Origin: Welwitschia mirabilis
Taxonomy: Eukaryota
Assembly (NCBI GenBank): GCA_051453625.1
Contig: JBOZIK010000001.1
Span: forward strand, 7,870,413 to 7,934,412
Length of the DNA: 64,000 nucleotides
Reading direction: 5' to 3'
A program made the position numbers and the translations under genes. Of the stretch, positions 7,091 through 43,100 are shown piece by piece (positions within the stretch are counted from its first letter, which is position 1; every line of letters starts with the position of its first letter). The notes under the pieces are model-generated. The model was not told the DNA's origin and made no database searches. It saw only the letters and a program-made list of their open reading frames with translations.

Positions 7091-7507
7091 TATAATGTTC
7101 CATTTTACTACTTTTGGATTTTTTGGCATAAAAATAAACATATAAATAATATCCTAGAAATAATAAGAATAATAAGAAATCATTTGGCAAAATATGGATC
7201 TTATTATTAGAAGCAGAAAATTACATTTCTTAACATTTAGATAATAGTCCTAGACTAGTGGTCAAAGGTAAATACATGGACTATGACTTGAGTCCCCTTC
7301 TTAAGACCCTTAGGAATCAAACAAAGTTTTCATTAGTTACATCCACCTTATCTATCCACCTTAACCTAATGTCATAGGCTTTTATAGCATAAATGAAAGG
7401 ACATAGTTTTATATCTTTAGATCATAACCATTCGTAACAACTCATTAATCATGCTTATTTAGCACCTTAATAAATTCTTTTATAAATTGTAAATTTGGAA
7501 CATTACA
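7091..7507 (-). repeat. 3' LTR of element A (~417 bp)
   Basis: Termini TATAATGTTC (decayed TGTAATG) and AACATTACA. Homologous to 33470-33796 and, in reverse complement, to 22826-23240. PPT is adjacent at ~7508-7521. Confidence 0.88.
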
Positions 7508-7689
7508 TTCCCTTCTCCTTAAGCATCATGCTCATCCTTGATTGTGGTTTCTCCTCTTCTTGCATCATTCATGAAGGTATGCTCATTTAGATTATTTTCT
7601 ATCTTATCTACAAAACATAAGAGAAGGAAAATATTATACATTAAGAGATATGTTAATGATGGAGAGATAATATATCATGTTTTATTTAA

Positions 7690-10205: not shown

Positions 10206-10339
10206 GGATATGTAATGTTTTCAATTTACTATTTGAGTAATAAGTATGTTAAAGGATAAATGAGTGTAATTAATAGAGATATGAATGAGTGTAAACCAAG
10301 TATGAAAAAATGTGTTTCTTCATCATTCTATTTAAGCTA

Positions 10340-13614: not shown

Positions 13615-13622
13615 TATTTATA
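13615..13622 (-). promoter_or_regulatory. TATA box (TATAAATA) facing the antisense ORF in element B
   Basis: Minus strand reads CCATTATTATAAATACCCTTATAGACCCCTCATTTT. Position and context are conserved in element A at 29296-29303. Confidence 0.5.
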
Positions 13623-13749
13623 ATAATGGACCAGGATTAACCTAACTCTAAGAGTAAAAGTTAATCATAGTTAACTAACCCATAGTCAAGTGTAATTAAA
13701 CTAAGTTAACTAAAGTTAAAACCATAGTTAGACATCTAATTCAAAAGAA

Positions 13750-14500
13750 GTCGATGTTGCACTCCAAGTTCATGATGTCATACTCGAAAAAACTCGATGT
13801 CGTGCTTATGTGTTTGACATTATACTAGGATCCACAAGACTCACTGTTGCACTCTAACGGCCAACATCACACTCTGAACCCGACATTGCACTTAGCTCCA
13901 CAAGGCTTAATATCATACTCTAAAGCCCAACATCACACTCTAAAGGCCAAAATTGCACTCTAAAGCCTAATGTTACAATGTAAATGCTGGCACCGCATCT
14001 GAAGGCTACCATCACACTTCAAGTCCAACATCATACTTTGGTACTTGATGTCACACTTGCCTTCACAAGGGCTCAATGCTGTTGTTGCTTCACAAAAAGC
14101 ATTTTTTCCACTTGCATGTGCAAGAAGCTCTAATGTTGTACTTGAATGTTTGATGTCAAACTTGGATGTTTGATGTCATACTCAAGTAATAGATACATCC
14201 CTCACTGCTGGTATTTTCAATGACCTCTGACATTGTAGTAGAAGACTTGACATTGCACTTTGATGTTTAACATTACACTTACATTATTAACATCACACTT
14301 ATGTATCTGATATTTCACTCAGGTACTAGACGTGTCCCTCGCCCCTAGCACTACTCTTGATGTCCCAAAATCTTTTCAAAATCTCTAATGTTACACTTAG
14401 TACTCAATGTCATACTTGGGTACTAGACATCACAATTAATCTTTTGATGTCACTCTTACAGTTCAACATCGCACCTAACTATCTAATGTTGCATTTGTAT
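13750..14500. repeat. Degenerate ~20-21 bp tandem array (inferred ancestral core CGACGTCGCACT) in element B leader
   Basis: Recurrent units CGATGTTGCACT, TGATGTCATACT, CAACATCACACT, CGACATTGCACT and TGATGTCACACT at ~20-21 bp spacing. Variants follow CG>TG/CA decay. Confidence 0.8.
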
Positions 14501-14626
14501 GCTTGATTATATAAATCCCTTAGTAGTTGGAATTCATGTTAATAAGGTTATTATGATAATAATTAAACTACTTCTTCTAATTATTTTCTATCTACCATAT
14601 GAGTACAGGTATCTAAGTATTACAAC

Positions 14627-17600: not shown

Positions 17601-20600
17601 TAAGGGAAGGAGTAATAAGATATTCTTGACCTCATCCAAATAGATCTTAAGAGCTATCAAAAGAAAACAAGTCTTCATTATCCTAGCATAGGTAGAAAAC
17701 CATAAAGAAAATCCTACTATACTAGAAGAACTGTAAGAATACTCTAATGTATTTAAAGACTAAAAACCACTCCTATCCAAGAGGAAAGTATAATACACAA
17801 TTAACTTAGTTCCTAGAGTGCAATCAATAGCATAAGCATCTTATCATTTCTAAGTAAATAATTAAGAGAACTCAAGTTGCAAGTTAAGTAGCTATTATTG
17901 GAAGGAAAAATTTACCCTAGTGTATCACCATGGAAAGCACTAGTTCTCTTTGTTAAGAAAAAAGATGATACCTTGTAACTTNNNNNNNNNNCTACAGGAA
18001 GTTAAACAAGGTAACCATTAAGAACAAGTATCTATTATCAAGAATCAATGATTTATTGGATCAACTTTAAGGAGCTAAGTTTTTTTAAAGATTGAGTTAC
18101 AGTTTGGATACCATTAGATCCACATCAAGGATAAAAACATCTACAAGACCTTCTTTAGAACAAGATATGGACATTACTAGTTTGTAGTAATTCCTTTCAG
18201 TTTAATAAAGATTTAGCTACTTTTATGAGTTTAATGAATGATATTTTTTGACTGTATTAGGATAAATTCATAGTTGTATTTTTAGATTATATTCTAATAT
18301 ATTCTAGANNNNNNNNNNNNNNNNNNNNNNNNNNNNNNNNNNNNNNNNNNNNNNNNNNNNNNNNNNNNNNNNNNNNNNNNNNNNNNNNNNNNNNNNNNNN
18401 NNNNNNNNCTTATCAACTACAACATTCATGACTTATATTTTAGAGATAAATTCTATGTCTTCCTAATTGAATAGTATCATGCCATTCTAGGGATTTCCTT
18501 CTTAACTAGATATAGTATTTAAATCAATTTTCATCAATGAACTATATTACTATCAACTTTGTTCAAAGAACAAATCTTCAAAGGGGAGGGGAGGAGTAAT
18601 AAAATATCCTTGATCTCATCCAAATAGATCTTAAGAGCTATCAAAAGGAAATAAGTATTCATTACCCTAGTATAGGTAAAAAACCATAAAGAAAATCCTA
18701 CTACACTAGAAGAACTATAAGAATAATCTAATGTATTTAAAGACTAAAAAACACTCCTATCCAAGAGGAAAGTATAATACACAATTGACTTAGTTCCTAG
18801 AGCATAACCAATAGCATGAACATCTTATCGTTTCTAAGTAATATAATTAAGAGAACTCAAGCTGCAAGTTAAGTAGCTATTGTTGGAAGGAAAAATTTAC
18901 CCTAGTGTATCACCATGAAAAGCACTAGTTCTCTTTGTTAAGAAAAAAGATGATATCTTATGACTTTGCATTGACTACAGGAAGTTAAACAAGGTAACCA
19001 TTAAGAACAAGTATCTATTACCAAGAATCAATGATTTATTGGATCAACTTCAAGGAGCCAAGTATTTTTAAAGATTGAGTTAAAGTTTAGATACCATTAG
19101 ATCCACATCAAGGATAAAAACATCTACAAAACCTTCTTTAGAAGAATATATGGACATTATGAGTTTGTAGAAATTCCTTTCAATGTAATAAAGCTTTATC
19201 TACTTTTATGAGTTCAATGGATGATATTTTTTTACTGTATTTGGATAAATTCATAGTTGTATTTTTAGATTATATTCTAATATACTTTAGAAATCAATAT
19301 GACCATATTGCACACTTGAAGAAGGTTCTACAGGTTATGTTCAAGCATAATTTTAAAGCCAAATAAAGCAAGTATAACTTATTTTAAATAGAAATTAGCT
19401 ATCTAGGCCATGTCATCTCTAGTAAAGGAATTACAACTGACCTAGTTAAAGTGTAAGCTATAAGAGAATGATGAGAATTAAAAGATGCTACATAATTTTG
19501 AAGTTTCCTAGGATTGGTTGACTTATATCAAAAATTCGTTTCAAGATTATTTTAACTCATAGTGCCATTAATATATTTAACTAAGTCAAAAACCACATTC
19601 AACTTTAATGACAAATGTAAGGAATCATTTCTTAGATTAATCTACTACTTATAATAACATCTATTCTCAAAATCACAAACATAAACAAATTATTTACAAT
19701 CATCATCAATGGTTCTACTTAAGAAATAAAAGTTGTACTTAGCTAGAACTATTAGGTAATTATTTATGAATTACTCAAGTTAAATTAACATGAGAAGAAC
19801 TATATTGTACATGATCTCAAATTACTAGTCATAGTACGTGCCTTGAAAGTTTGGATATGTTATCCTATGGAAAGTGAATTTTTTCTCAAAATAGATTATA
19901 AAAGCTTGGAATATTTTTAGAAATAGCTTCTTCTAAATATTTTATAGAGAAGATGGGATAAGTTGCTTATAGAATATAACTTCAAAATATATTATACCCC
20001 TAAGAAAGAGAATAAATTCCAGATGCCTTAAGTAGAATGTGGTACATGCTAGCAACCTCTATTACAACTGATGTATCTGTCTTCCTCAAAACATCTTTAA
20101 CCGATGATTCATACTTCAAGGACATACATCAAATGATCCAAGAATAAAAAGAAGTAGATATATACATGCTCTCATAGGATGGATACCTCCTGAAAGTATG
20201 ATGTTTATTCATTCCACAAGGCCCATGGAGAAGGAAGATGGTGTCCGAACTACATGAAGTTCTATATGCAAGATACCTGGATTAATCAAGAATTACCACC
20301 ACTTGCAAAAACAATACTTTTGGCCCATAATGAAAGTATAATTAAAGGTATACATCCATAATTATTCCATATGCTATCAAATGAAGATTGATTAGAGAAG
20401 ACCCACTAGACNNNNNNNNNNNNNNNNNNNNNNNNNNNNNNNNNNNNNNNNNNNNNNNNNNNNNNNNNNNNNNNNNNNNNNNNNNNNNNNNNNNNNNNNN
20501 NNNNNNNNNNNATAGATTATAAAAGCTTGGAATATTTTTAGAAATAGCTACTTCTAAATATGTGATAGAGAAGATGGAATGAGTTTCTTGTAGAATATAA

Positions 20601-22110
20601 CTTTAAAATATATTATAACCCCAAGAGAGAGAATAAATTTGTAGGTGCCTTAAGTAGAATGTGGTACATGCTAGTAACCTCTATTACAACTGATCTATCT
20701 GTCTTTCTCAAAACATCTTTAACTGATGATTCATACTTCAAGGACATACATCAAATGATCCAAGAAGAAAAATAAGTAGATATATACATGCTCTCATAGG
20801 ATGGATACCTCCAAAAAGTATGATGTTTATGCATTCGACAAGGCCCATGTAGAAGGAAGATGATGTTCGAACTACATGAAGTTCTATATGCAAGATACTT
20901 GGATTAATCAAGAATTACCACTGCTTGCAAAAATACTACTGTTAGCCTAGAATGAAAGTATAATTATAGGTATACATCCACAATTGTCCCATATGCTAGA
21001 AAATAAAGATTGATTAGAGAAGACCCACGAGTCTCCTCCAACCTTTGGAAATCCCATAGTGGAAATGGGAAGAAATANNNNNNNNNNNNNNNNNNNNNNN
21101 NNNNNNNNNNNNNNNNNNNNNNNNNNNNNNNNNNNNNNNNNNNNNNNNNNNNNNNNNNNNNNNNNNNNNNNNNNNNNAATATAATCAAATAATTAGTCCT
21201 CTAGTTTATATAGGAAGTTTTTAAATTACATCATGCATCACAGGTTATAGTACCCAACTAAGATCCAAAGTTCTTGTCTAAGTTCTAACAAAGTTTATTT
21301 CACCACTTAGGCTCTAAACTCAACTTCAGTACTGCATACCACTAAGAAATAGATGTTCAAACAAAAAGAGTAAATTATATACTAGAAGATACTCTAATAT
21401 GTTACATGATAGGAAAGCCTAAACAATGGGAGAACTATCTACATTTGGTAAAGTTTGCTTATAATTAGATGTTTCAAACTTCCATTTGATGTTTACCGTT
21501 CAAAGCAATGTATGATAGGAACTATTCCACCACTATCACATACTCATATCCTTCAAAGAAATAAAAAAGGATAATACCCTCAGAATTAAAGATGATGAAA
21601 AATGTAATCAATAAAATAAAAATACAGCTACAAAAAGTACAAGATTGATAGAAAAATTCATATAATCAAAAACATTAGACCCACACATTCTAAGTTAACA
21701 AACAGGTATTGCTAAGAATTAAGATAGAAAGTAACTCCTTGAAAATGAGTAAGTATAGTAAGTTATCATTATAGTTCTGCAGTCTATTCAAGATCATTGA
21801 CAGAATAGGAGATCTAGCATATAAACTAGAACTCACTCAAAAAATGTCTTGAATACATTTAGTTTTTCATGTGAGAACAATGAAACCATATCATGAAGAT
21901 AAAAACTAGGACTACACCTTAAACTGGTAACATATTATGCTCAAACCCAACCTAACTTTCACTATCCAATTGAAAAAGTTTCTAGATACTAGAATTAAGA
22001 AATTAAGAATTAAACATATAAATGAAATACTTATTTAATGAATCCACTATAACTAATAGATGTGGAAAAATAAGGGGTATATGTAGGAGACTTTTCCTGG
22101 ACTTTTTAAA
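14627..22110 (+). pseudogene. Element B gag-pol (gag, protease, RT, RNase H, integrase, chromodomain), with assembly-duplicated segments
   Basis: gag AQEWWSRYQ...FIPNDFIKDQM, protease FLVDSSSLHNFI (~17280), RT SVSPWKALVLFVKKKDD and [47 protein letters not shown], integrase FSTAYH*EIDVQTKRVNYILE, and chromodomain KFLDTRIKKLRIKHINEILI (~21970-22110). Confidence 0.93.
15307..16220 (-). mobile_element. Younger LTR (TGTTGT-terminus family) inserted in element B gag; far end lies in a gap
   Basis: gag homology stops at TTCCAATG|TGTTGTAGTG, while the duplicate copy continues TTCCAATG|CCTCTAC at ~16775. Minus-strand CTATAAATAGCC at ~16068-16079. Similar to the LTR at 57885-59074 and retains more CpG. 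Confidence 0.75.
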
Positions 22111-22825
22111 TAAAGCCTAATATACCATTTTTTTAATATTATTAATGTATCTATTAATAAATAATATCTATCCTTTTATTATGTCTTGTATACTGCCCCT
22201 GGCCTAAATTTGCACTTCAAAAGTAGTTNNNNNNNNNNNNNNNNNNNNNNNNNNNNNNNNNNNNNNNNNNNNNNNNNNNNNNNNNNNNNNNNNNNNNNNN
22301 NNNNNNNNNNNNNNNNNNNNNNNNNNNNNNNNNNNNNNNNNNNNNNNNNNNNNNNNNNNNNNNNNNNNNNNNNNNNNNNNNNNNNNNNNNNNNNNNNNNN
22401 NNNNNNNNNNNNNNNNNNNNNNNNNNNNNNNNNNNNNNNNNNNNNNNNNNNNNNNNNNNNNNNNNNNNNNNNNNNNNNNNNNNNNNNNNNNNNNNNNNNN
22501 NNNNNNNNNNNNNNNNNNNNNNNNNNNNNNNNNNNNNNNNNNNNNNNNNNNNNNNNNNNNNNNNNNNNNNNNNNNNNNNNNNNNNNNNNNNNNNNNNNNN
22601 AAAACAAGGAGTATATGTAGAAGACTTTTCCTAGAATTTTTAAAGAAAGCCTGATATACCTTTTTTTTAATGTTATCGATGTATCTATTAATAAATAATA
22701 TCTCCCCTTTCATTATGTTTTATATACCATACAAAAAATAATCAAGAGGAGCATGGATTCAGAAATAATATAAGAAGAGGATAGACCATATTCAAGGATG
22801 AGAATAATTCCTAAGAGGGAGGGAA

Positions 22826-23240
22826 TGTAATGTTCCCAATTTACTATTTGTATAATAAGTGTACTAAACACTAAATAAGCATAATTAATAGAGATAGAAA
22901 TGGGTGTAATCCAAGTTTGAAAAGATGTATTCCTTCATTATGCTATTTATGCCTATGATATTAGGTGGGGGTGGATAGACTGAGTGGATGTAACTAATGA
23001 CAAACTTGGCTAATTTGCAAGGGTCATAGGAGGAGGACTCAGGTCATAGTCTATGTCTTTATCTTTAACCATTAGTCCAAGGCTATTGCCTCATGATGAG
23101 GACTATAATTCACTGCTTTTAATAATAAAATCTACATTCTTTTTAGATTATTCCTTGTTTTTTCTATTGATCCTATTATATTATTTTATATGTTCCTTTT
23201 TATATGAAGTAATCTAAAATTAGTAAAATAAAACATTACA
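22826..23240 (+). repeat. 3' LTR of element B (415 bp); second assembly copy at 24054-24466
   Basis: PPT AAGAGGGAGGGAA, then inverted termini TGTAATGTT...AACATTACA. Confidence 0.93.
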
Positions 23241-23245
23241 GGGTA

Positions 23246-26200
23246 CCATCCTTTTTCTTCACAAAAAGTACTGGGGCTCTCTAAGTTGACACACTAGGAT
23301 AGATATTGCCTTCCAAAATTAATTATTCAATTTGCAATTTCATTTTTCTTAATTATATAACTGAGAATTAGTAGGAAGCTTGAGCTATTTGGTTGTACAT
23401 TAGGAAGTAAGTCAATTATGTGTCTTGGATAATACCATCTTAAAATCTTTAAATACATTAAAAAATTCTCAGAGTTCTACTAGTAATGTGGAATTTTCTT
23501 TAGAGATTTTTTCATGAATCAAGGTAATAAGACTTATTTCCTTTTAATAGCTTTTGACATCTGCTCAGGTAAGGTTAATGATATCTTCTTATTAATTTCA
23601 TCCCTTTCAAGATTTATTTTCTAAATGAAGTTCTTAGCAAGAGGATGCATTGGTAAAAGTTAATTCAAACATTATATCTAAGTAAGAAGGAAAATCCCAA
23701 AATGGCATGATATTCTCCAANNNNNNNNNNNNNNNNNNNNNNNNNNNNNNNNNNNNNNNNNNNNNNNNNNNNNNNNNNNNNNNNNNNNNNNNNNNNNNNN
23801 NNNNNNNNNNNNNNNNNNNNCATTAATGTCATAATTAGATGGTTAGATCAGATTATGATAAAATGCTTGAAAATGACTGAATTGAGTGCCTCTTCCCTGC
23901 AAAACATCACCAATTACACTATTAAAACATGATAATTTGGGATCACAACATATACCATACAAAAAATAATCAAGAGGAGCATGGCTTCAAAAATAATGTA
24001 AGAAGACGATAGACCATATTCAAGGATGAGAATAATTCCTAAGGGGGAGGAAATGTAATGTTTCCAATTCACTATTTGTGTAATAAGTGTATTAAATACT
24101 AAATAAGCATAATTAATAGAAATAGAAATGGGTGTAACCCAAGTTAAAAAGATTTATTTCTACATTATTCTATTTATGCCTATGATGTTAGGTGGGGGTG
24201 GATAGACTGAGTGGATGTAACTATTGACAGCCTTGGCTATTCCCCAAGGGTCACAAGAGGAGGACTCAGGCCATAGTCTATGTCTTATCTTTGACCATTA
24301 GTCCAAGGCTATTGGCTAATGATGAGGACTGTAATTCACTGCTTCCAATAATAAAATCTGCATTCTTTTTAGATTATTCCTTATTTTTTCTATTGATCCT
24401 ATCATATTATGTTATATGTTCCTTTTTATATGAAGTAATCTAAAATCAGTAAAATGAAAAATTACAGGGTACCATCCTTTTTCTTCAAAAAAAGTATTAG
24501 AGCTCTCTAAGATGACATACTAGGGTAGATATTGCCTTCCAAAATTAATTATTCAATTTGTAATTTCATTTTTTTTAATTGTATAACTAAGAATTAGTAG
24601 AAAGCTTGAACTATTGGTTATGCACTAGGAAGTAAGTTAATTATGTGTCATAATTTTATTTTGGATAGTACCATCTTAAAATCTTTAAATACATTAAAAA
24701 ATTATTATAGTTCTACTAGTAATGTGGAATTTGCTTTGGAGATTTTTTCCTGAATCAAGGTAATAAGACTTATTTCCTTTTAATAGATTTTAACATCTTC
24801 TTAGGTAAGGTTAAGAATATCTTATTATTCATTTCATCCCTTTCAAGATTCATTTTCTAAATGAAGTTCTTAGCAAGATGATGCATTGGTAAAAGTTAAT
24901 TCAAACATTATATCTAAGTAAGAAGGAAAATCCCAAAATGGCATGATATTCTCCAATCTGAAAGACATAGAAGTTATTCCTAAAATGTGAGTCATGCATG
25001 GTGTAATTGACAAGAAAAGTAATCCCATTCTATGTAAAAAAAAAAAATTCCCTATGACTTCTATGATAGATTTTTATTCAGTAAATAGGGTAATGTTGAA
25101 TTTGTTAAATAATATTAAAGAAATAAAGCTATGGGAGGCATAACTATCTATCAGAAATGAAATAAAGAAAGATGAAATTTAACCATGTAAGTTCAAGATA
25201 AAGTACTAGTTATGAATCATACTTGCTTAGATGGTGTCATACATCCTTTTTAACTATGCACCTAAATTTTATAAGGTTTGAGGCCATGTGTTCTGAGGGA
25301 GATTCAGTGCTCAAGATTTAGCTGGATAATTTCTAATAACATAAACATTTTTATTCATGGTAGGTAATGTTAGTTCTAGATGTTTCATGTGTCAATGGTA
25401 TGTTAGTTATGTTGGATTCATTCATTTATGAGTGGTGAGTCTTGTTCCATCAATTTTTTATCCTTAAAGATAATGTATTACTTTATGATGGGCATCTTAG
25501 GTGGATTTGATCTCCAAGATGCATAAGACACTTCTAATTTTTGTTGGAAGTTTTGAATAAAACTGTTAAACAATTTCTTTTCTTTGAAGGTCTTTTGGTA
25601 TTTCATAAGTCAGTGGAATTTAGATTAGTATTCATGAAATGGCCATTTTCCTAGGCAAAGACATTAGAATTCTACCATTTGGTCTTCTATGAAGTCTTCA
25701 GAATTGAATTTATTTTTGAATTCCTTCACAAATATTTCCTAAGGCACTTGTTAAGTATGTTTTTATTGACATCTAAACCATCCTTCCTATGTATTTCCTA
25801 CAATAAATATGGTGGCATATGCACATTGTCATTCTAATGAAACATTCCAAAGGTCATAGTAGTTTTCTATTTATTAAATCTAGGAGATGACTTCCTTACT
25901 TATCCTAGCTTTTCCTTCATATGTCTTAAGGCATATCATTTTTGCAGTCTCCTCTTCTTTTCATTATTTTTATTAGAATTGTTTCCTTAATTTGATAGGA
26001 AGAATTAGAGGATTGACTCAATGTTTAGAAGTATCATATNNNNNNNNNNNNNNNNNNNNNNNNNNNNNNNNNNNNNNNNNNNNNNNNNNNNNNNNNNNNN
26101 NNNNNNNNNNNNNNNNNNNNNNNNNNNNNNNNNNNNNNNTTTTATCTATGCACCTAAATTTTGTAAGGTTTTAGACCATGTGTTCTGAGGGAGATTCAGT

Positions 26201-27900
26201 GCTTAAGATTTAGCTGGATAATTTCTAATAATGTAAATGTTTTTATTCATGATAGGTAATGTTAGTTCTAGATGTTTCATGTGTTAATGGTATGTTAATT
26301 ATGTTGGATTCATCCATTTATGAATGATGAGGCTTGTTCCATTAATTTTTTATCCTTAAAGGTAATGTATTACTTTATGATGGGCATCTTAGGTGGATTT
26401 GATCTCCAAGGTGCATAAGACACTTCTGATTTTTATTAAAAGGTTTGAATAAAACTATTAAACAATTTCTTTTCTATGAAGTTCTTTTGGTATTTCATAA
26501 GTCAGTGGAATTCAGACTAGTGTTTATGAAGTGGCCATTTTCGTAGGCAAAGACATTGAAATTCTACCATTTAGTCTTCTATGAACTCTTCAGAAATGAA
26601 TTTATTTTTGAATTCCTTTACAAATATTTCCTAAGGTACTTGTTGAATATGTTTTTATTGACATCTGAACCATCCTTCCTATGCATTTCCTATAATAAAT
26701 ATGGTGGCATGTGTGCATTGTCATTCTAATGAAATATTCTAAAGGTTATAGTAGTTTTCTATTTATTGAATCTAGGAGATTACTTCCTCACTTATCCTTG
26801 CTTTTCCTTCATATGTCTTAAGGCATATCATTTTTGCAATCTCCTCTCCTTTCCATTATTTTCATTAGAATTGTTTCCTCAATTTGATAGGAAGGATTAG
26901 AGGATTAACTCAATGTTTAGTAGTTTTATATAGATGTTCTAAATGTTGACTNNNNNNNNNNNNNNNNNNNNNNNNNNNNNNNNNNNNNNNNNNNNNNNNN
27001 NNNNNNNNNNNNNNNNNNNNNNNNNNNNNNNNNNNNNNNNNNNNNNNNNNNNNNNNNNNNNNNNNNNNNNNNNNNNNNNNNNNNNNNNNNNNNNNNNNNN
27101 NNNNNNNNNNNNNNNNNNNNNNNNNNNNNNNNNNNNNNNNNNNNNNNNNNNNNNNNNNNNNNNNNNNNNNNNNNNNNNNNNNNNNNNNNNNNNNNNNNNN
27201 NNNNNNNNNNNNNNNNNNNNNNNNNNNNNNNNNNNNNNNNNNNNNNNNNNNNNNNNNNNNNNNNNNNNNNNNNNNNNNNNNNNNNNNNNNNNNNNNNNNN
27301 NNNNNNNNNNNNNNNNNNNNNNNNNNNNNNNNNNNNNNNNNNNNNNNNNNNNNNNNNNNNNNNNNNNNNNNNNNNNNNNNNNNNNNNNNNNNNNNNNNNN
27401 NNNNNNNNNNNNNNNNNNNNNNNNNNNNNNNNNNNNNNNNNNNNNNNNNNNNNNNNNNNNNNNNNNNNNNNNNNNNNNNNNNNNNNNNNNNNNNNNNNNN
27501 NNNNNNNNNNNNNNNNNNNNNNNNNNNNNNNNNNNNNNNNNNNNNNNNNNNNNNNNNNNNNNNNNNNNNNNNNNNNNNNNNNNNNNNNNNNNNNNNNNNN
27601 NNNNNNNNNNNNNNCTTGGATTTTATTTGATTGGTATTTCTTCCTAGTAAGATTTTATTTGATTGGTATTTCTTCCTAGTAAGAGAGAAGGTTGTCAATC
27701 TTACTGGTAAGGATTTTATTTTATGAGGAGATGTGATTAAGTTGGGTGTCTATTTTATCCATTCATCCATTTACTTTGTATTCCATAATACACCAATTGG
27801 TTTGATGTCCTTCTAAACTCACATGCCTCTCCTTTTTTACTTTTTTTTTAAGAGTGGTTTGTCTTCTTCTAATGGCATTATGTCCTTTTATAATGTTTTC
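23246..27900 (-). pseudogene. Element A gag, protease and RT start (partly duplicated across gaps)
   Basis: Minus strand GNIYPSVST*RAPVLFVKKKDGT (23246-23310), protease FISFLIDSYASHSFI (~25130-25170), and gag remnants homologous to B 14627-17100. Confidence 0.88.
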
Positions 27901-28019
27901 TACAACATATAGGTATATATAACTAAAAGGTAATTATAAAAATAATTAGAAGGATCATTAGCAATTATCATAATAGCCCTTAATGATGTGGATCCCCTTT
28001 GTAATAATTGTTAAGGAAG

Positions 28020-29160
28020 TGTGTCATCGAGTACCTTAAGTGTAACATTGGATGATACATAACTGTCTTGCTTGAAGTGCAATATTAGGTATTAAAGTGT
28101 AACATTAAGCTTCCTTATATGACTTCAAAACTTCATTATGAAGCAAGCACAAGTGAGGCATTGAATGCGAGATTTAAATGGAAGGTGCCAAGGTCTTATG
28201 GAAGTAAATGTGATATTGAATACCTAAGTTCAATATCAAATACCTAAGTATGATGTTAGACACTATTATTGTAGTTAATATAAAGCAAAACTAATGATGC
28301 TGAGGGAAAGTGAGTGGTGTTGGAGGCTAGCGAATGCAAGTATGATATTAGGAACTTAAGTGTGACATTAAGTACTTGAGTGTGATGTCAACTCTTCAAG
28401 TAGGGCATCTAGCATTTCTCCAAGAGCTATGTTTACATGGAATGTAAAGTGTTGGGGCCTTAGAAAAGGCATTAATTTGTATGGATTTAACTATGACATC
28501 AAGAACTCAAGTACAACATTTGACATCTAAGTGTGACATCAAGCACTCAAGTGTGATGTCAAAGTTTACATCACAATGTAAATTTGAAGTGAAATAAGTA
28601 ATGCGTGAGTCAAGTAGAAGATGTTAAAGCCTTACATGGGTAAGTATGATATTGGATATTCAAGTATAATATCAGGTACCTAAGTATGATACCATGGACA
28701 TTTCACACAAGCATGTAAGAGAAAAACCCATGATGTCATGAGTAAGAGGGGATGCTAGAAGTCTATGAAACCAAGTGCGATGTTAGACAGCTAAGTGCAA
28801 TGTCATACATCTAAGTATGACATCAAAGCTTGAAATGCAATGTTAAAGACTTCATTGTAGGATAGTTAAAAGATTGTGGTTGATGTTGAGACTGAGCAAG
28901 ACCTATGGGAGGTAAGCAGAGGCAAGTATGACGTTAAGCACTTAAGTGTGATGTTTAACATCTAAGTGTAATGTCAAAAATGAAAGTACAACATCAAAGA
29001 CCTCATAGAAGAGTAGGATTAAAGGGTACAATCAATGCCAAAGCCAAGCAAAACCTATTGGAGGTAGGAGGGAGGCAAGTGCAATGTCAGGGGCTCAAGT
29101 GTAATGTTGGATTCCTAAGTGTAATATCAGCCTCCTAAGTGCAATGGTGGCCCTCTGATA
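28020..29160. repeat. Degenerate ~20-21 bp tandem array in element A leader (reverse complement of the array in B)
   Basis: Recurrent AAGTGTGACATCA, AAGTGCGATGTTA, AAGTATGACGTTA and AAGTGCAATGTCA units. Confidence 0.8.
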
Positions 29161-29295
29161 TGTTTCATTGTTATGGGTTCTAGTATTATCATCTAAATGT
29201 AATTTACTTCCTTCAACTCTGGGTTAGTTGACTTTAGTTAACTTTTAACTATAGTTAAATTTATTCTTATGGTTTAGTTAACCCTGCTCCACTAC

Positions 29296-29303
29296 TATAA
29301 ATA
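29296..29303 (+). promoter_or_regulatory. TATA box facing the antisense ORF in element A
   Basis: CCACTACTATAAATACCTCATGGACTCCTCATTTTTCTC, followed by a CT-rich leader. Conserved with B. Confidence 0.5.
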
Positions 29304-29867
29304 CCTCATGGACTCCTCATTTTTCTCATGATTTTTATTTAATTAGTGGCTCTCTTTTTTCCTCATTTTTACTATTTTTCTTCTATATGTTACCTCTCTA
29401 TTGTCTTTTAGTGATTTTTATATATTTTTGTGCAAGTCATTTATGGTATACATTCCTTATAAATATAATATCTTCCTTAATTCTTTTATTTTGCTACATA
29501 CACATCTCAATGTATGGCTTAAAGAATTTGTTTTATCATTTNNNNNNNNNNNNNNNNNNNNNNNNNNNNNNNNNNNNNNNNNNNNNNNNNNNNNNNNNNN
29601 NNNNNNNNNNNNNNNNNNNNNNNNNNNNNNNNNNNNNNNNNNNNNNNNNNNNNNNNNNNNNNNNNNNNNNNNNNNNNNNNNNNNNNNNNNNNNNNNNNNN
29701 NNNNNNNNNNNNNNNNNNNNNNNNNNNNNNNNNNNNNNNNNNNNNNNNNNNNNNNNNNNNNNNNNNNNNNNNNNNNNNNNNNNNNNNNNNNNNNNNNNNN
29801 NNNNNNNNNNNNNNNNNNNNNNNNNNNNNNNNNNNNNNNNNNNNNNNNNNNNNNNNNNNNNNNNNNA

Positions 29868-32372
29868 AGAAACTATAAGATTGGTATATAGATTAAGCTA
29901 AGGTAATCATATTCCTCCTATGATCTCTCATTCTGATAAGGACTTTTATTATTTTATGGCTAATCACTTAGATGACTTTGTATGCATGTGGGAGATTAAC
30001 ACACATCACCATGGGGTATCCATAGTTAATTTCACTACCCCTTATTTTACAGCTTATGGTGAACTAATTACAGGTAGGGCCTTCCTTTATGATTGAGTAG
30101 GTGAAATCCCTACTTATATAATTTATTTGTTACCATTTTTAGTTAGTGGAATTTCCTTGGATTAGGCATCCATTACCTATTTATCCACTCTTTCTCAAAT
30201 GATGTATTTGAAGTAAAACAGCAATAGGAATAAGTATTTTTATGAATATATTCTTCTTGGTTTGTATTTTTCTTTCATGGTTTTAAATGACTTACGATCC
30301 TTTATGTCTTTGAATGTGAATCCATCTTTTCTTTACTTTCTCATAAAAATTTGGCTAGATTCTTACTTTATTTTCATTCTTTCACATCTATGAAAGATGA
30401 AGATTCCATAACCTATAATCGTAGAGAAACATCCTAGGGTACTTTTTCTATTCCATGTAAGGTATTGATCCTTGTATCAGATTTTTGAATAATAATTTTA
30501 TCTCTAGCAACTTTTTTTTTTGTTTATTATTCTTTATAGATGAGTAAGACTTCAAGAATACATAACCTTTTCTATTAAAAATGAAAGAAATCTCAAGTAA
30601 TTGTCTAGTGCACAAGGAACTAGAAGAAGAAGAAACTCCTCTTAGCTTTGCTTGGTAACACTAGCCCTATAAGGTATTTTTTTTTTAACCTTTTTTGTTG
30701 TTTTCTTTACTTAGCATGATATTTTTACTTAACATTTTTCTTTTTTTGCTTTCAAGTTCTATGCTCTAAAACATTGGTAAGGGATGATATATATTTTACC
30801 CCATAGCCTTCATAAAAGATTTTTCTTCACATGCTAAGGGAGGACTACATAGTAGTAAGTTACTTCTTCCCTTCTATTTCTTTTATTAACTTGTTCATTG
30901 ATTTACTATTTTCTTCTAATTCTCAAGAGGAGGAGGTTATTAATAAGTTTAATGCATTAATGGATTAATAAGATATATCATACCCTACCCGCTACTTTTA
31001 GCCTCTAAGTTAGAATCCACCAGTAACTTACAAATCTTTAAAGCCTTCTCATCATCCAATTGTATCTTTAAATACTAATGTTAATGAGTAGGATTAGGTA
31101 TTATACTACATAAATCAACTATTAGCAGTGGTGGAGACCCTATATATCAAGATTAAGAAGCTGATGAACTAGTTGGGAGAGTACCAAACTCTCTCTAGTT
31201 TACTACATACATATGTCATTTATCTATCTTGCCTAGGTGATGTTTATGCTCATTTTCACTCTCAGTTAAGAAATTTTCCATGGAACTTCAAGTGTAGTTG
31301 CTTTGCTCACTTCACCTTACATTGTTCTCTATAGTTCAAATGGCCTACCCCACTCTGAGATTTCNNNNNNNNNNNNNNNNNNNNNNNNNNNNNNNNNNNN
31401 NNNNNNNNNNNNNNNNNNNNNNNNNNNNNNNNNNNNNNNNNNNNNNNNNNNNNNNNNNNNNNNNATGATTTATATTTTACCCAATAGCCTTCATAAAAGC
31501 TTTTCCTTCACATGCTAATGGAGGACTTCATAGTAGTAAGTGACTTCTCCCCTTCTATTTATTTCATTGGATTATTCATGGATTTACTATTTTCTTCTAA
31601 TTCTCAAGGGGAGGAGGTTTTTTAATAAGTTTAATGCATTAATGGATCAAGAGAATATATCATACTCTATCCTCTACTTTTAGCCTCTAAGTTAGAGTCC
31701 ACCAATAACTCGCAAATCTTTAAAGCCTTCTCATCATCCAATTATAGCTTTAAATACTAATGTTAATGAGCAGGATTAGGTATTATACTACACAGATCAA
31801 CTATTAGTAGTGGTGGAGACCCTATATATCAAGATTAAGAAGCTGATGAACCAGTTGAGAGAGTACCAAACTCTCTCTAGTTACTGCATACATATGTCAT
31901 TTATCCATCTTGTGTAGATAATGTTTACACTTATTTTTACTCTAAGTCAAGAAATTTTCCATGGAACTTCAAGTGCAGTTGCTTTGCTCACTTCACCTTA
32001 CATTGTTCTCTATAGTTCAAATGGCCTACCCCACTCTGAGATTTCTATAGTTTAATTAATATGATGAAATATTTCTATTATATGGCTTGGCATGGAATAG
32101 AGGAACAAGAATCCATGAGTGATTTCCTTCAAATGCTAGAAAATCAAGTGGTGAATATGCACTTATCAGAGAAGAGGTCATGAGCAGATGCTTCTCAACT
32201 TACTACATTGTAGGAGAGCCAAGTAGCTTTATTTGTGTGATTAGTAAAGAGTGAAGGGATGATCTAGGCTTATGCAGATTATTTAGCCATTATCATTGAT
32301 GATATTAATTTTTTATATCATGAAAGAGAGATCTTTAAGGAGCATCTATTAAGAATCCTGACAGTTTATAGT
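29868..32372 (+). pseudogene. Antisense accessory ORF of element A (unknown product, probably multi-exon; partly duplicated across a gap)
   Basis: DFYYFMANHLDDFVCMWEINTHHHGVSIVNFTTPYFTAYGELITGRAFLYD*VGEIPTYIIYLLPFLVSGISL, then INQLLAVVETLYIKIKKLMN*LGEYQTLS, then a helical C-terminal part MSDFLQMLENQVVNMHLSEKRS*ADASQLTTL*ESQVALFV*LVKSEGMI*AYADYLAIIIDDINFLYHERE. Confidence 0.65.
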
Positions 32373-32779
32373 TAGCGTCATCTAAAGCTTTATAATAAGC
32401 CATACCCCATCACTGGGCTGGCTGCTATGACAGGTTTTTTTAAGTGAATATTAACACTGCAATGGTTCCTTACCATACCATTGTAATGGAGGTTATCATA
32501 AGTTGTGTGGAGTCAATCATTCTAGGTGTAAAGGGTTAGAAGCCCATTTCATTTTTTATAGAATATTTTCTTCCTCCTCATTAGTGATTTCCTAAGTTTA
32601 GTTGTTTAAGGCATCATGCATTATATTATTTACTAACATCTTATTTCCTTTTTATACCATAATGTTTCTATGTATTATTTGCTATTTGGCTTGCTTTTTT
32701 AATGTTAAGCTTCTATTTATTTATAAAACTAGATTCCTTTCTTGCTTTTCTTTGAAGTAGTAGTTTAGTACTTAATATT

Positions 32780-32792
32780 GGCTCTAATACTA
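32780..32792 (-). promoter_or_regulatory. Primer binding site (initiator tRNA-Met) of element A, decayed
   Basis: Minus strand TAGTATTAGAGCC, 2 nt after the LTR end, is the canonical TGGTATCAGAGCC with two transitions. Confidence 0.8.
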
Positions 32793-32794
32793 AA

Positions 32795-33524
32795 TGCAAT
32801 ATTTTATTTTGCTATTTTTTGATTAGTTCACATAAAAAGAATCATATAAATAATATGTCAAGAATAATAATAATAATAACAAATAACAATTTGATAAAAA
32901 GTAAACTTTATTATTAGAAGTAGTGGATNNNNNNNNNNNNNNNNNNNNNNNNNNNNNNNNNNNNNNNNNNNNNNNNNNNNNNNNNNNNNNNNNNNNNNNN
33001 NNNNNNNNNNNNNNNNNNNNNNNNNNNNNNNNNNNNNNNNNNNNNNNNNNNNNNNNNNNNNNNNNNNNNNNNNNNNNNNNNNNNNNNNNNNNNNNNNNNN
33101 NNNNNNNNNNNNNNNNNNNNNNNNNNNNNNNNNNNNNNNNNNNNNNNNNNNNNNNNNNNNNNNNNNNNNNNNNNNNNNNNNNNNNNNNNNNNNNNNNNNN
33201 NNNNNNNNNNNNNNNNNNNNNNNNNNNNNNNNNNNNNNNNNNNNNNNNNNNNNNNNNNNNNNNNNNNNNNNNNNNNNNNNNNNNNNNNNNNNNNNNNNNN
33301 NNNNNNNNNNNNNNNNNNNNNNNNNNNNNNNNNNNNNNNNNNNNNNNNNNNNNNNNNNNNNNNNNNNNNNNNNNNNNNNNNNNNNNNNNNNNNNNNNNNN
33401 NNNNNNNNNNNNNNNNNNNNNNNNNNNNNNNNNNNNNNNNNNNNNNNNNNNNNNNNNNNNNNNNNNATTAGTTCACATAAAAAGAATCATATAAATAATA
33501 TGTCAATAATAATAATAATAATAA

Positions 33525-33555
<31 letters not shown>

Positions 33556-33796
33556 AAGAAGAAGAAGAAGAAGAAGAATAATAATAATAAACAATTTGAT
33601 AAAAAGTAAACTTTATTATTAGAAGTAGTGGATTACATTTCTTATCATTTAGCTAATAGCCCTAAACTAGTGTTCAAAGGTAAAGATGTGGACTATGACG
33701 TAAGTCCCCCTTCTAAAACCCTTAGGAATCAATTAAGGTTATCATCAGTTACATTCATCCAATGTACCCACCCCCCACCTAACATCATAGGATTTT
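32795..33796 (-). repeat. 5' LTR of element A (two partial assembly copies separated by a gap)
   Basis: 33600-33796 aligns with 7200-7380, e.g. TTATTATTAGAAG, GGACTATGAC..AGTCCCCTTCT and CACCTAAC. Adjoins the PBS. Confidence 0.85.
33505..33590. repeat. Compound microsatellite (AAT)n(AAG)n(AAT)n within the LTR
   Basis: Directly visible perfect trinucleotide runs. Confidence 0.95.
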
Positions 33797-37105: not shown

Positions 37106-40100
37106 TGTTAAGAAATAAGAGAGTTAATAATAAGTAGAATATCTCTCAAACTCAAATTTTTTTCTTCTTCTTGTTATTTCACAAAGAGCTTGCTTTATAA
37201 AGGAAAGCATACCACTAAGCTTTTCATGTATCACTATAGAAATACCCCCATCAACATGTAAATACACTCTTCTAAGGAAAAACTAGAGTGCCTAGGGGAA
37301 AACCTTAGAAATGTGGTCTATAATAAAACTTTTAGAAAGGAGTTTTTATGCAAGGGAACTACTTTGTTAAAGAAGTAGTCAATTGAATGCTATACATCTT
37401 ATAGGAGATAGGCTTACACATGCTATAATACTAGGCCAAAAATATGTACTATACATCCTATAGGACTAGGCCATAATTGTACTACACTAATACTAGAATC
37501 AAATGTTCCTTCAATTAGAGACTCGTAGATCAAGTAAAGCCTAGAATGTACAAGAAAGAAATGAGTTTGAGTCAACTTATTATCAATCTTATCTTGGATT
37601 GGAAATACTAAAACTCCTCTTGATCAAATGATTTAGTAATAATATCAAAAATTTCTTCTATAGTCAAGTAGTATACTAGTGCAATAATTTCATTTTATGT
37701 GATTTTTTTAATTTTGTGAATCCCTACACAGAAGTGTTTTATCTTATTATGGTGCACTAGATCCTTCGCTATGCAAATTACTGATTGATTATCAATGAAG
37801 AGTTCTATTGCCTTAGTTTATTTTAGATTTACTACTTCTAATAATTTTCTTAACCATTTTATTTCTCTACATGCTTCAAAAGTAGCTATATATTTGGCTT
37901 TAGTAGAATATTATACTATAGGTTTTTGACACTTCAACTATCAAGATAAAGGTGATGTTTTTAAGAATATGACATACCCTGATGTTAACAATGAGGTATC
38001 AGTTTCTCTAGTGAAATCTGAGTTAGTGTATGCCTTGAGAATTAAAAATTTCTTTTATAGATGAACCTAACTATTTTATCTTCTTTAGGTATCCTAATAC
38101 TCTCTTTGTAGTGTTTACATAAGTAACTTTAAGTGTATAAANNNNNNNNNNNNNNNNNNNNNNNNNNNNNNNNNNNNNNNNNNNNNNNNNNNNNNNNNNN
38201 NNNNNNNNNNNNNNNNNNNNNNNNNNNNNNNNNNNNNNNNNCGATAAAAGTATCTATATATTTAGCTTTGGTAGATTATTACAATATAGGTTTTTGACAG
38301 TTCGACTATCAAGATAGAAGTGATGTTTTCAAGAATATGACATACCCTAATGTTAACAATGAGGTATCAGTTTCTCTAGTGAAATCTGAGTCAGTGTATG
38401 CCTTGAGAATTAAAAGTTTATTTTATAGATGAACCTAACTATTTTATCTTCTTTAGGTATCTTAGTACTCTCTTTGTAGTGTTTACATGAGTAACTTTAG
38501 GTGTATAAAAATATCTTGACAATGCACCAATAGCATACGATATGTCTAGTTTAGTACTGGTTATACAAATTATACTTTCTACTATACTTCTATATTCTAT
38601 TTTATTTATAGGTTCTGAGTCTTCATCAACAAATCTTCTAGCATTTTTATCTAAAGGTATTATAGCTTCTTTTGTGTCTTATAGTCTAAAATTCTAGATA
38701 AAATCTCTAATTTAATTTTTTTACATAAATAAGATTCCATATTTTACTAAGAAATTTCTACACCTAAATAGAATTGAGCCAATTCAAGATAAAAAAACTT
38801 AAATTTCCTATCAATGTAATCTTTATTTGTTTCATATCTTCTTCATTACTTATGATTATCAACATATCATTCACATATATCACTATGTATGTAGATTTTT
38901 GTTCATTATATTTTATCAATAATGTGACATTCACATCTTGATAATCACATACTCTAAATCCAATGGAACTTAAATAATTTGAAGATTAGTGTACTAATCT
39001 CTTAGTGCTTATTTTAACTCATATAAAAACTTGATCAATCTACACACCTTATGTTCTTTGCCTTTTTCTTCAAAACCCTTTGATTGCATTATATAGGTTA
39101 CTTTTTGAAGTCTCTATGAAGAAATAAATTGATAAAGCTTTTAGCTTTTTATGCTATCAAGGAAATTACTATTCTAATGATATCCCATCTAGTTATTAGA
39201 GTAAAGACTTCATTATAGTCAAGTCCTTTCTTTTATTGTAGGCCTACAAAAACAAGCCAAGCTTAATGTCATTCAAGAATGTTATCTACATTATATTTGT
39301 TATAGAAACCCATCTACTAGGTAATCCTATGCATCCTCATGGAAGCTCTACCAAGTTCCAAGTATCATTTTCAATAAGGTCATTATATTATTTTTGCATG
39401 AATTCTATCCAATGATCATGTTAAATAGCAGATTTTAATGAGGTTGGTTCATCATCAAAAGTTAAGTGGATCTCATTATTATCATGATCATGAGATGTAT
39501 GTGAGTCATATCTAATTTTAGTTTTACCCTTTTCATCATTATGAACATGTTGGAGAGCAGATAACAACTAAGTACTTCGATGTCATATATAGGTAGTTCT
39601 AGCTTTTTTGATTAGAGAACCTACTAAATTGCTACTAGAATCATAATTAAGACTTCTTAGAACATCAAATTTCTTAATTCCCATAGTTTGCAAAGAAGCT
39701 TTACTAATAGAATAAATTAGAGTAGGACTGGTGGCTACATCTCTCCCCTTAACCATAGGATATTGAGCATTCAAGATGGTTACTAGGATAGACGAAAAAT
39801 AGATCTTTGAAAGATTAAGCTAAAAGTCATTATTTGAAGTCTCTGAAAAAATGGCACCATGAGAAGTAATGATCTCATAATGTTCTAGAAAATAACTCAA
39901 TAACCCTTCTAGTTAGTTAGATATTCCACAAAAATACTGATACGATCATGTGCTCTAATTTGTCATGATGCTTGTGTGAAATATGGATGTAGAACTTATT
40001 AAAAAAAAAACATGAAAGAAATGTAACTTTAGTTTGTACCCATATAACATCGTAGTGATAGATATCCCTTTTTTAGTATAGCAACCAATGCAATTAATAA

Positions 40101-43100
40101 AATGCATAGTTGTATTTACTACTTCACCATAAAGATGGATCTTATAGCCACTAAAATACATCATGGAATGCAGAATTTCCATGATTATGCAATTAAATCA
40201 CTTATTAATGCCATTTTATTGAGGTATCTCAGGGTANNNNNNNNNNNNNNNNNNNNNNNNNNNNNNNNNNNNNNNNNNNNNNNNNNNNNNNNNNNNNNNN
40301 NNNNNNNNNNNNNNNNNNNNNNNNNNNNNNNNNNNNCCATTTAGTTATTAGAGCAAAAAATTCATTACAGTTAAGTCCTTTCTTTTGTTGTAGGCCTACG
40401 ACAATAAGCCAAGCTTAATGTCATTCAAAAATGTTATCTACATTGTATTTGTTGTAGAAAACCATCTACTAAGTAATTCTATGAATCCTAATGGAAGCTC
40501 TATCAAGTTCCAAGTATTATTTTCAATAAGTTCATCATATTATTTTTGCATGAATTCTATCCAATTATCATGGTTAATAGCAGATTTTAATGAGGTTGGT
40601 TCACCATCAAAAGTTAAATGGAGCTCATCATTATCATGATCATGAGATGTATGTGAGTTATATCTAATTTTAGTTTTACCCTTTTCATCATTATGAACAT
40701 GTTGGAGAGTAGACGACAACCAAGTACTTCGATGTCGTATATAGGTAGTTCTAGCTTTTTTTGGTTAGAGAACCTACTAAATTACTACTAGAACCATGAT
40801 TAATCATTCTTAAAACATCAAAATTCTCAATTCCCATAGTTTGCAAAGAAGTTGTACTAATAGAATAAATTAGAGTAGGACTGGCGGCTACATCTGCCCC
40901 CTTAACCATGGGATATTGAGCATTTAAGATGGTTACTAGGCTAGACAAAAAATAGAGCTTTAAAAGATTAAGATAAAAAACATTATTTTAAGTCTATGAA
41001 AAAATGACATCATGAGAAATAATGATTTCATAATGTTCTAGAAAATAACTTAATAACTCTTCTAGTTAGTTAGATATTCCACAAAAATACTAATACAATC
41101 ATGTGCTCTAATTTGTTATGATGCTTGTGTGAAATATGGATGTAGCACTTATAACAAAAAGCATGAAAGCAATGCACCTTTAGTTTGTACCCATACAACA
41201 CTCAATGAGAGATATCCCTTTTTTAGTATATCAACCAATGCAATTAATAAAATGCATAGTTGTATTTACTACTTCACCACAAAGATAGATCTTAGAGCCA
41301 CTAAAATACATCATAGAATGCATCATTTCCATGATTATTTAATTAAATCACTTATCAATGCCATTTTATTAAGGTATCTTAGGGTAGGTCTCCAAATAAT
41401 GAATTTATTCAGAAGTGAGAAAGCCCTTAAATTTAGTAGATGTATACTCACCAACATTATCTAAGTGGAAACTCTTAATTTGATAATCATCCTGCTTTCC
41501 ACTTTGAGTTTAAACTTCTTAAAAATGTCTGATGTTTGATATTTTAAATTGATGAAATACATAAAACTCATTCATAATTATCAATAAAGTAGATAAAATG
41601 ATGAAAGTTGTGAAGAGTGAAAACTAACATAGATTCACATAGGTCATTATGAATAAGTAGAATCTTTCAATCGATATGCCACTTACTTAGTGTAAATCAT
41701 TGTTTAGTTGCTTTACCCATTATAAATTCTTTATACTAAGAAAATCCTATGAAATAAATTGAATATGTTAGTGGCAATTCATACACATCACATTCATGGT
41801 GTGAGGAGTAGAATGTCCTAGTTAAGTATGTCATAGTAGCAACAAATAGATCACGTCTTAGGAAATTATGCAAGTAATCTCTCATATTTTTACATAACCA
41901 CAAAGATGAATAATCTATCCATTTATGTAGCCTTTCATAATTAGTTGGTAATTGTAATATATTCACTGAGTGCTTCATCATGAAAATTTAGTGATCTTTT
42001 CACACTAGAGTGAAAAGTAATAGAAGATGAAACCTTAAAGAAGGCATATATAAAACATTAAAAAGAGTCTATAAAGTGAGTTATGTTGAGTTAATAATAA
42101 TAGAATTATAGACTTTCACTAGAAGTTAAGTTTTATTTACCCAAAAAACCTAAGTTGATGCTTCGACGAAGTCATTAAAACAAACATGTTGATAAGTCAT
42201 GTGAGGAGTAGCGCTTGTATCAAGAATCCATGTCTCATCATAAGGTACATGCTCATGCATACCTACAAAGTTAAATTTGTTAAAAAAATGCATTTAATTT
42301 AAAATTTTATCATTAAGGGATTTAGAATATTTAATAACTACATTGGTCTTGAGTGTAGATGTGATCTGGTCTCAAGCTAAATGATAGATGTCCATGATAT
42401 GACATTGTCTTCTACATTATGAATTCTAATATTTATTTTCTTTATAGTAGTAGTATGATAAACTTACTTCTTATCTAGTTGAGTCTAATTAGAATTTTTA
42501 CTTTGATATTTGTATAGAGCCTTACCCCTTATCATGATGCAATGCCTTTGGTAGATGAGAGTTGCTAGAAGACTACATATGTTGAAGAGGAGATTCATAA
42601 AAACATGAAACTTTGAATGTCACATTAAAGGATGAGGAACCTATAAAGTTAAATTGTATTTCTATGGCAATAAAATCATTTCTTAGTGTGTCAAATTTTA
42701 TATTAAGTAGCTACTTAATTTTATGAAGAGATATGTAGTTACGAAGAGATGAATCCTCCAAATAATAATGAATTAAATTGACATAATAAATGCATACTTT
42801 ATTAATTTGGTCTATCTTATTAACTTTTGCCTTAATGTCCATCATCTAAGCTATGAGCTAATAATTTTTTTCCCTTTCACAATAAAGGTTATTCATGCTT
42901 GTGATGAGGTTGATTGGTTCTAGATCATTCTTCACATAAAATGTATCGTGTAAAGTACAGTNNNNNNNNNNNNNNNNNNNNNNNNNNNNNNNNNNNNNNN
43001 NNNNNNNNNNNNNNNNNNNNNNNNNNNNNNNNNNNNNNNNNNNNNNNNNNNNNNNNNNNNNNNCATGTTCTTCATTTGTATTATAAAGAGGAACATGCAT

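Follow-up and report, generated by a model that had tools for sequence, protein, structure and literature searches.

A candidate antisense accessory gene in the 5' leader of a high-copy Ty3/gypsy retrotransposon family of Welwitschia mirabilis

Extra open reading frames (ORFs) are common in the long terminal repeat (LTR) retrotransposons of plants, and we know of none with a proven role. ORF1 of Ogre elements is read in sense orientation, and ORF0 of L1 (LINE-1) is a short antisense ORF that lies within a retroelement's 5' untranslated part and has an internal antisense promoter. For plant Ty3/gypsy elements, the portions of PMC7264820 and PMC11963269 available to us describe antisense extra ORFs in maize Grande (gene23), rice RIRE2, Silene Retand and the Retand TRP28 ORFs; these sit between pol and the 3' LTR of Tat/Retand elements, which are not chromoviruses, many of them carry PF04195, and the Grande antisense gene reportedly has a promoter of its own. 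The available text of PMC11963269 also mentions the antisense genes of the retroviral human T-cell leukaemia virus (HTLV). Moreover, in the accessible part of PMC6317226, the Ogre, Tat and Athila group is characterised by extra ORFs and by non-coding regions of large size, and in lineages that have no extra ORF the internal region is almost wholly polyprotein; the plant mobile domain (PMD, PF10536) occurs in 57% of Ogre elements, and the REXdb class eORF-5'R denotes an extra ORF in the 5' part in reverse orientation, with at least 250 codons required for counting. Here, we analyze a stretch of 64,000 nucleotides from Welwitschia mirabilis (assembly GCA_051453625.1, contig JBOZIK010000001.1, positions 7,870,413 to 7,934,412 of the forward strand; hereafter the window, in whose own numbering all positions are given), in which an ORF antisense to gag-pol lies in the leader from the primer-binding site (PBS) to gag of two Ty3/gypsy elements.

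The two elements are nested, one on the minus strand (A-element) and one on the plus strand (B-element), and the homologous ORF occupies the same place, in the same orientation, in both leaders. An earlier sequence-only reading of this DNA had proposed such an arrangement, which the orientation of the PBS and LTRs and the position of gag have now confirmed. That reading had also quoted a core of 19 matching codons, which we located at 30031-30087 (+) in A and 11996-11940 (-) in B, and had described differences clustering at third codon positions, transversions included. The pattern holds well beyond that core: in an ungapped comparison of 97 codons (A 29869-30159 versus B 12135-11845), the 98 mismatches fall 31/21/46 on the three codon positions (chi2 p=0.008), with transitions at 25/17/29 and transversions at 6/4/17, the latter being enriched at position 3 (p=0.0015), an excess that argues against a pure effect of deamination or composition. 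The 19-codon core alone, with 10 differences (2/2/6), is not significant (binomial p=0.077), and the mismatches outside it are distributed 29/19/40 (chi2 of about 7.5, p of about 0.02). By the Nei-Gojobori method, the proportion of synonymous differences (pS) in the ORF frame is 0.685 and that of non-synonymous differences (pN) is 0.23, which corresponds to a rough ratio of non-synonymous to synonymous substitution rates (dN/dS) of about 0.15, as opposed to 0.41-1.03 in the other five frames. In addition, the ORF frame contains two stops in A and three in B, versus 5-13 in the other frames.

As controls, further regions were compared between the same two elements; that the reverse transcriptase (RT) control derives from the very pair used in the ORF test follows from the nested architecture described below. 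The RT/RNase H region displays mismatches at 64/39/82 with a dN/dS of 0.16, and the gag-protease region displays 76/70/111 with a dN/dS of 0.33. No periodicity was observed in the LTR (33/33/38, p=0.79), in the promoter-side leader (11/13/13 and 19/16/24) or in the leader at 30496-30924 (35/37/47). For these two copies, the substitution pattern shows purifying selection on the ORF as strong as that on RT/RNase H while the two lineages diverged. This divergence postdates the arrival of the leader block, since both elements share the junction of the block with its gag-side flank. As the ORF has changed as conservatively as the enzymes of the element, it probably once made a useful protein, of a previously unseen kind. 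The selected accessory protein put forward by the sequence-only reading is partly upheld, at the scale of two broken copies and contig-level read data, as regards the signature of selection, equal to that of RT/RNase H, and the lack of any described extra-ORF domain.

In the window, each copy is a dead relic. The A copy has six internal stops (30094, 30163, 30214, 30391, 30409 and 30466), and in the shared frame the stop-free part of A (29902-30093) spans 64 codons, and that of B, ahead of a gap, spans 56. At the nucleotide level, A 29936-30146 matches B 12068-11858 at 71%, and A 30429-31202 matches B 11112-10333 at 68%. Within the latter segment, a second, weakly periodic stretch on the ORF strand (30925-31202) may represent a further exon or a second ORF. 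AT-rich spacers with GT..AG bounds in the orientation of the ORF recur at common places in A and B, and no frame-consistent splice model could be derived from them. A PBS-like TGGTAT at 29882 on the ORF strand was taken as chance.

The family was surveyed in four of eleven DNA sequencing runs, considering contigs with at least 80% identity on 29867-31364. The runs yielded 2830, 563, 2781 and 2636 such contigs on this stretch, the majority of them below 90% identity, and the best-kept parts of the family are the first 70 codons of the ORF and a 50-bp island in its 3' part. Word depth in the bin 30417-30466, which covers most of that island, is 9768, 383, 10177 and 7052 in the four runs, and the adjacent bins in run X1 have depths of 202 and 498; summed depths of about 7,000-10,000 in three runs thus compare with a few hundred alongside. 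Between A and B, the island hardly differs at any of the three codon positions, and besides coding it may act as a signal in the nucleic acid. In the loose-end consensus sequences, at least one run has a sense codon at five of the six internal stops of A (30214 lies outside coverage), and the consensus ends at the shared stop position in three of the four runs. The abundance of the family, with thousands of contigs in each run, suffices for evolutionary tests across all its copies.

The orientation of the ORF relative to gag-pol depends on the structure of the two elements (Table 1). When the flanks of the B-element are read on the minus strand, they form one continuous RT frame, which means that an older A-element on the minus strand received the B-element within its RT. 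Owing to this clean nested insertion, the halves of the A-element RT now lie 14 kb apart. Both the domain order, gag-protease-RT-RNase H-integrase, and the presence of TG..CA LTRs, a PBS, a polypurine tract (PPT) and a target-site duplication are those of Ty3/gypsy elements. In the A-element, RT, RNase H and the integrase SH3 domain were verified with Pfam at 10116-7946 (-). Scores above the Pfam cut-off (in brackets) were obtained for RVT_1 (41.0 bits; 29.6), RT_RNaseH_2 (38.6 bits; 29.8) and SH3_Tf2-1 (51.0 bits in the A-element and 53.7 bits in the B-element; 30), and scores below it for RVP_2 (19.6 bits; 20.3) and Retrotrans_gag (14.1 bits; 24.1). The spacer from pol to the PPT measures only about 430 bp. 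The gag 5' region of the B-element is present twice (14845-15306 and 16321-16775, 85% alike), with about 0.9 kb of unrelated sequence (15311-16220) and a gap in between, as a result of either misassembly or insertion.

Table 1. Positions of the antisense ORF and of the retroelement features around it in the window (PR, protease).
Feature	Position	Strand	Remarks
Antisense ORF, A copy	29956-30489	+	about 178 codons, ATG to shared stop
Antisense ORF, B copy, first 68 codons	12048-11845	-	residues 68% identical to A in 69 columns
Antisense ORF, B copy, last 19 codons	11111-11055	-	directly before the double stop
Shared ATG	A 29956-58; B 12048-46	A +; B -	
Double stop codon	A 30490-30495; B 11054-11049	A +; B -	conserved in both
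TATA-like box upstream of ORF	A 29296-29303; B 12448-12441	A +; B -	motif by sequence only; region homologous
Most conserved family island	30414-30465	+	3' part of ORF
Second periodic stretch, ORF strand	30925-31202	+	33/17/37, p=0.021, weak; matches 103-codon open frame B 10273-10581 (-)
A-element shared leader block	27615-31880	-	homologous to B 14850-10338; ORF on + strand
20-bp sub-repeats in A-element leader block	28338-29150		further upstream of ORF
PBS-proximal leader segment, 0.9 kb	31881-32780	-	A-element only; no domain, no RT detectable
A-element PBS	32781-32792	-	iMet PBS motif, 2 mismatches, both transitions
A-element 5' LTR, positions 127-416	32795-33791	-	as 32795-32928 + 33565-33791 around spurious gap
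A-element gag, protease, RT start	24459-26941	-	Retrotrans_gag E=0.054, RVP_2 E=0.084; interrupted by B-element
A-element RT, RNase H, integrase, PPT, 3' LTR (7507-7090)	7090-10210	-	Pfam domains, LTR mapping
B-element	10211-24467	+	LTR positions 1-127, leader, gag/PR, RT to integrase, 3' LTR
B-element target duplication	10206-10210 / 24468-24472		5 bp, GGATA vs GGGTA, 4/5 bases match
B-element leader	10338-14850	+	same block as A; ORF on - strand
B-element gag 5' region	from 14851	+	
B-element gag/PR	16621-17559	+	RVP_2 E=8e-4

The LTR is a 416-bp unit (22826-23241), of which 24054-24467, the 3' LTR of the B-element, is an assembly duplicate. It begins with TGTAATG and ends with TTACA, and a purine tract precedes TGTAATG in all three LTR starts that follow an internal region. 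Three further copies, full or partial, were found at 7507-7090 (-), 10211-10337 (+) and 33791-33565 + 32928-32795 (-). The LTR pairs within one element are only 73-78% alike in the A-element (32795-33791 versus 7090-7507) and 81% alike in the B-element (10211-10337 versus 22826-22952), so that either the insertions are of great age or the scaffold is a mixture of contigs from different copies of the family. The A-element 5' LTR copy also contains a (GAA)n microsatellite (33527-33577) that is missing in the overlapping contig at 32870-32900. In a scan for the initiator methionine tRNA (iMet) PBS motif, 38 sites matched with at most three mismatches versus 32 expected, i.e., no overall excess; the one at 32792-32781 (-) is among only four matches with two mismatches, and two bases separate it from the LTR end at 32795, the point at which the homology of three LTR-like copies breaks off.

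Once the duplicated gap flanks are removed and gaps are allowed for, the leader between PBS and gag measures about 4.3-4.7 kb and is common to both elements. Each of three junctions lies within a single contig, namely that of the LTR start with the leader (10211-11112), that of the leader with the gag 5' region (13511-15104), and that of the leader with the PBS and LTR (31465-32928). In the B-element, the 5' LTR halts at position 127 and is directly joined to the leader block (10337/10338). The LTR contig on the A side ends no more than 5 bases from that same LTR position, which suggests that the deleted form may be common enough to branch the assembly graph.

The state of the assembly has to be considered when reading these lengths. 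The window has an A+T content of 71% and contains 39 runs of N, totalling 7859 bases. At 16 of the 39 runs, the sequence before the gap recurs after it at about 84-93% identity with few indels, and these include 14 of the 23 runs that are exactly 100 N long. Such recurring flanks are an assembly artefact that inflates apparent lengths; their probable origin is haplotypes left uncollapsed, or different copies of a repeat, that the scaffolder put together. Examples are 4434-5097 versus 5198-5862 and, within the leader block, 30784-31364 versus 31465-32045 (91%). For several stated gaps (12601-13510, 32929-33466 and 26952-27614), the real size is apparently near zero. Elsewhere in the window, a decayed fragment of plastid petB at 1759-2064 (+) (Pfam Cytochrome_B, E=3e-14) is a nuclear insertion of plastid DNA and identifies the window as nuclear DNA of a plant, and Ty1/copia remnants lie at 38442-41000 (-), with RVT_2 (E=0.016) at 38767-38985; these remnants are doubled over a 100-N gap (39185-40236 versus 40337-41386).

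We then focused our attention on the identity of the ORF product. Pfam searches with ten ORF pieces returned nothing but MerE at E=0.15, and those with read-through frames returned no relevant match in six frames of A or four of B. The likeness to Transposase_28 (PF04195) that the sequence-only reading had thought to see, and PF10536, which it had listed for checking, both went without a match at E<=10 in the ORF pieces and the A and B read-through frames. A phmmer search against 1.84 billion representative proteins gave five matches at E<=0.001, all of them repetitive proteins matched over two to three stretches each, and judged spurious. In addition, a word-index search of longer proteins provided one candidate without a score, and a protein atlas search provided no usable match. 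The profile search of PDB retrieved four WD40 (LIS1) chains at E 0.4-1.1, which are not credible given their unfit repeat spacing, and three read-through frames retrieved nothing relevant from PDB. Scans of metagenome contigs gave 93 pattern matches without any relative among them, and then 0 matches.

Comparison with the elements' own proteins gave a similar outcome. The hhalign probability for the ORF versus gag was 0.07%, and Smith-Waterman scores versus gag, protease and RT were within the range of shuffled sequences, the best score versus gag/protease ranking at 8-9 of 300 shuffles and being obtained against an off-frame reading. Likenesses of motifs in the ORF region to protease and RT, noticed by eye, passed no objective test, and an apparent 'antisense gag' in the B-element proved to be the reverse complement of the true gag. 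No RT likeness was detected by protein or DNA tests in the A stretch 31945-32794.

As for the lineage, the chromodomain claimed by the sequence-only reading was not recovered: Pfam gave no Chromo match at E<=1 in nine read-through frames of these heavily decayed copies, nor at E<=10 in six stop-free pieces, and a chromodomain-like motif was seen by eye only. The LTR of 416 bp is short for the Tekay clade, to which the sequence-only reading had likened the RT. The nearest RT matches, two of 17 candidates, were an Arachis protein (51%) and a rust fungus protein (47%).

Overall, these results are probably best accounted for if the ORF is an accessory gene that forms an integral part of a high-copy Ty3/gypsy family, lying antisense in the middle of a PBS-gag leader of about 4.5 kb. 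Transcription of such a gene would start at an internal promoter of its own and run towards the 5' LTR, and its product would be a protein of about 178 residues, possibly longer via further exons, that may serve the amplification of the element or its control. Antisense orientation would let the promoter, the terminator and any introns persist, because they would not be read as such on the genomic sense RNA; an antisense gene would then be the one kind of gene able to retain introns through retrotransposition. Moreover, an antisense transcript over the leader could damp or tune the sense RNA. The layout also makes the translation of gag puzzling, since on the genomic RNA an untranslated stretch of 4.5 kb would precede gag. 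A more far-reaching proposal, which we offer as a tentative one, less likely to be right than wrong, is that a plant family occupying much of its host genome depends on, or is governed by, its own gene, read backwards from an internal promoter in the 5' leader, possibly spliced and with a product that has no database relative; for plants, this would be the counterpart of L1 ORF0 or HTLV HBZ, in a type of element thought to contain gag-pol only.

Several points weigh against an integral accessory gene. The evidence for selection consists of two broken copies and contig-level read data, the dN/dS of 0.15 is a rough value with pS near saturation, and the region was picked by the earlier reader after the pattern had been seen. 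In the B copy, two of the first 69 codons are stops, and the middle lies concealed in a run of 303 N (11540-11842). In the sequencing runs, the consensus at 30094 is a stop in one run and a sense codon in another, and at 30391 it is a stop in run X2 (one of the four runs). The B-element is without LTR positions 128-416, the PBS and 0.9 kb of leader, being either a deleted form or the product of assembly loss. As the window is a gap-ridden scaffold, its contigs may derive from different family copies, and with gap flanks only about 90% alike, an 'element' may be a mosaic of such copies. Lastly, no homolog of the ORF was found in Pfam, the 1.84 billion proteins or PDB, and AlphaFold2 run on the single sequence gave a mean confidence (pLDDT) of 45.3 and no usable fold.

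It is also conceivable, though we regard it as unlikely, that the leader block is a fragment of another gene or mobile element that was captured once, in reverse, by an ancestor of the family, so that the ORF is a passenger relic. Capture is the usual origin of long foreign leaders in compact Ty3/gypsy elements, and the leader block has a TATA-like box and sub-repeats of its own; plant extra ORFs are also heterogeneous and apparently independently acquired, according to the available part of PMC6317226. However, a passenger would drift neutrally, while the dN/dS between A and B and the excess of position-3 transversions resemble those of RT. Moreover, no terminal repeats of the leader block itself were found, so that an unrelated nested transposable element with its own termini, raised by the sequence-only reading as an outcome that would undo its claim, was not borne out, and no donor turned up among the 1.84 billion proteins searched.

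Rather improbable, in our view, is that the periodicity results from chance or composition in a non-coding leader, the conserved blocks being cis-acting RNA or DNA signals for, e.g., packaging, dimerisation or promoter function. In its favor are the choice of the region after the fact, the lack of significance of the 19-codon core taken alone, the stops in both copies, and the peak of conservation at 30414-30465, which extends to every codon position. Nevertheless, the periodicity remains outside the core, transversions cluster at position 3, and four non-coding controls from the same elements are free of periodicity; in addition, the ORF frame has the fewest stops of the six, and its stop position is common to A, B and three of the four run consensuses.

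Finally, we give very little credence to the ORF being the sense-strand gag of a separate retrotransposon beside the RT-bearing elements, since this reading, even though in B the ORF strand is that of the nearest Pfam-verified RT/RNase H/integrase and the distance from ORF to RT fits gag plus protease, is overturned by the PBS beside the LTR end 32795 and stands refuted, barring chimeric contigs at each of three independent junctions: that nearest RT is part of the other element, in the 3' portion of the A-element that the B-element insertion cut off, the nearest LTR-PBS of A points the opposite way, the leader is colinear with gag on its far side at both loci, the ORF lies on the strand opposite to gag and has no likeness to it in Pfam or by hhalign, and no RT is detectable downstream of the A copy.

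Antisense extra ORFs of plant LTR retrotransposons are already known, and what appears to be new here is one located in the 5' leader. A search of full-text literature found, in the text it returned, no description of a 5'-leader antisense ORF in a chromovirus, which does not disprove that one exists. LINE-1 ORF0 and HTLV HBZ share with the present ORF that they are antisense ORFs in retroelements, but the elements and hosts are unrelated and the sequences show no likeness. As in Ogre, the extra ORF lies between the 5' LTR and gag, but it differs from Ogre ORF1 and its PMD in its reverse orientation and in having no match to PF10536. Position and strand agree with the REXdb class eORF-5'R as defined in the part of PMC6317226 referred to above; however, the ORF, with about 178 codons, is below the 250 counted there, and the stretch 30925-31202 might extend it. 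An ORF with selection equal to that on RT, measured in the same two copies, gives a clean opportunity to study the function of such genes. Unlike the ORFs of Grande and Retand, it sits between PBS and gag, in an element with short LTRs and almost no 3' spacer, and is without a Pfam domain; nevertheless, like those of Grande, RIRE2 and Retand, it is antisense to gag-pol, is present in copies of its family, and has been kept about as well as the proteins of the element itself.

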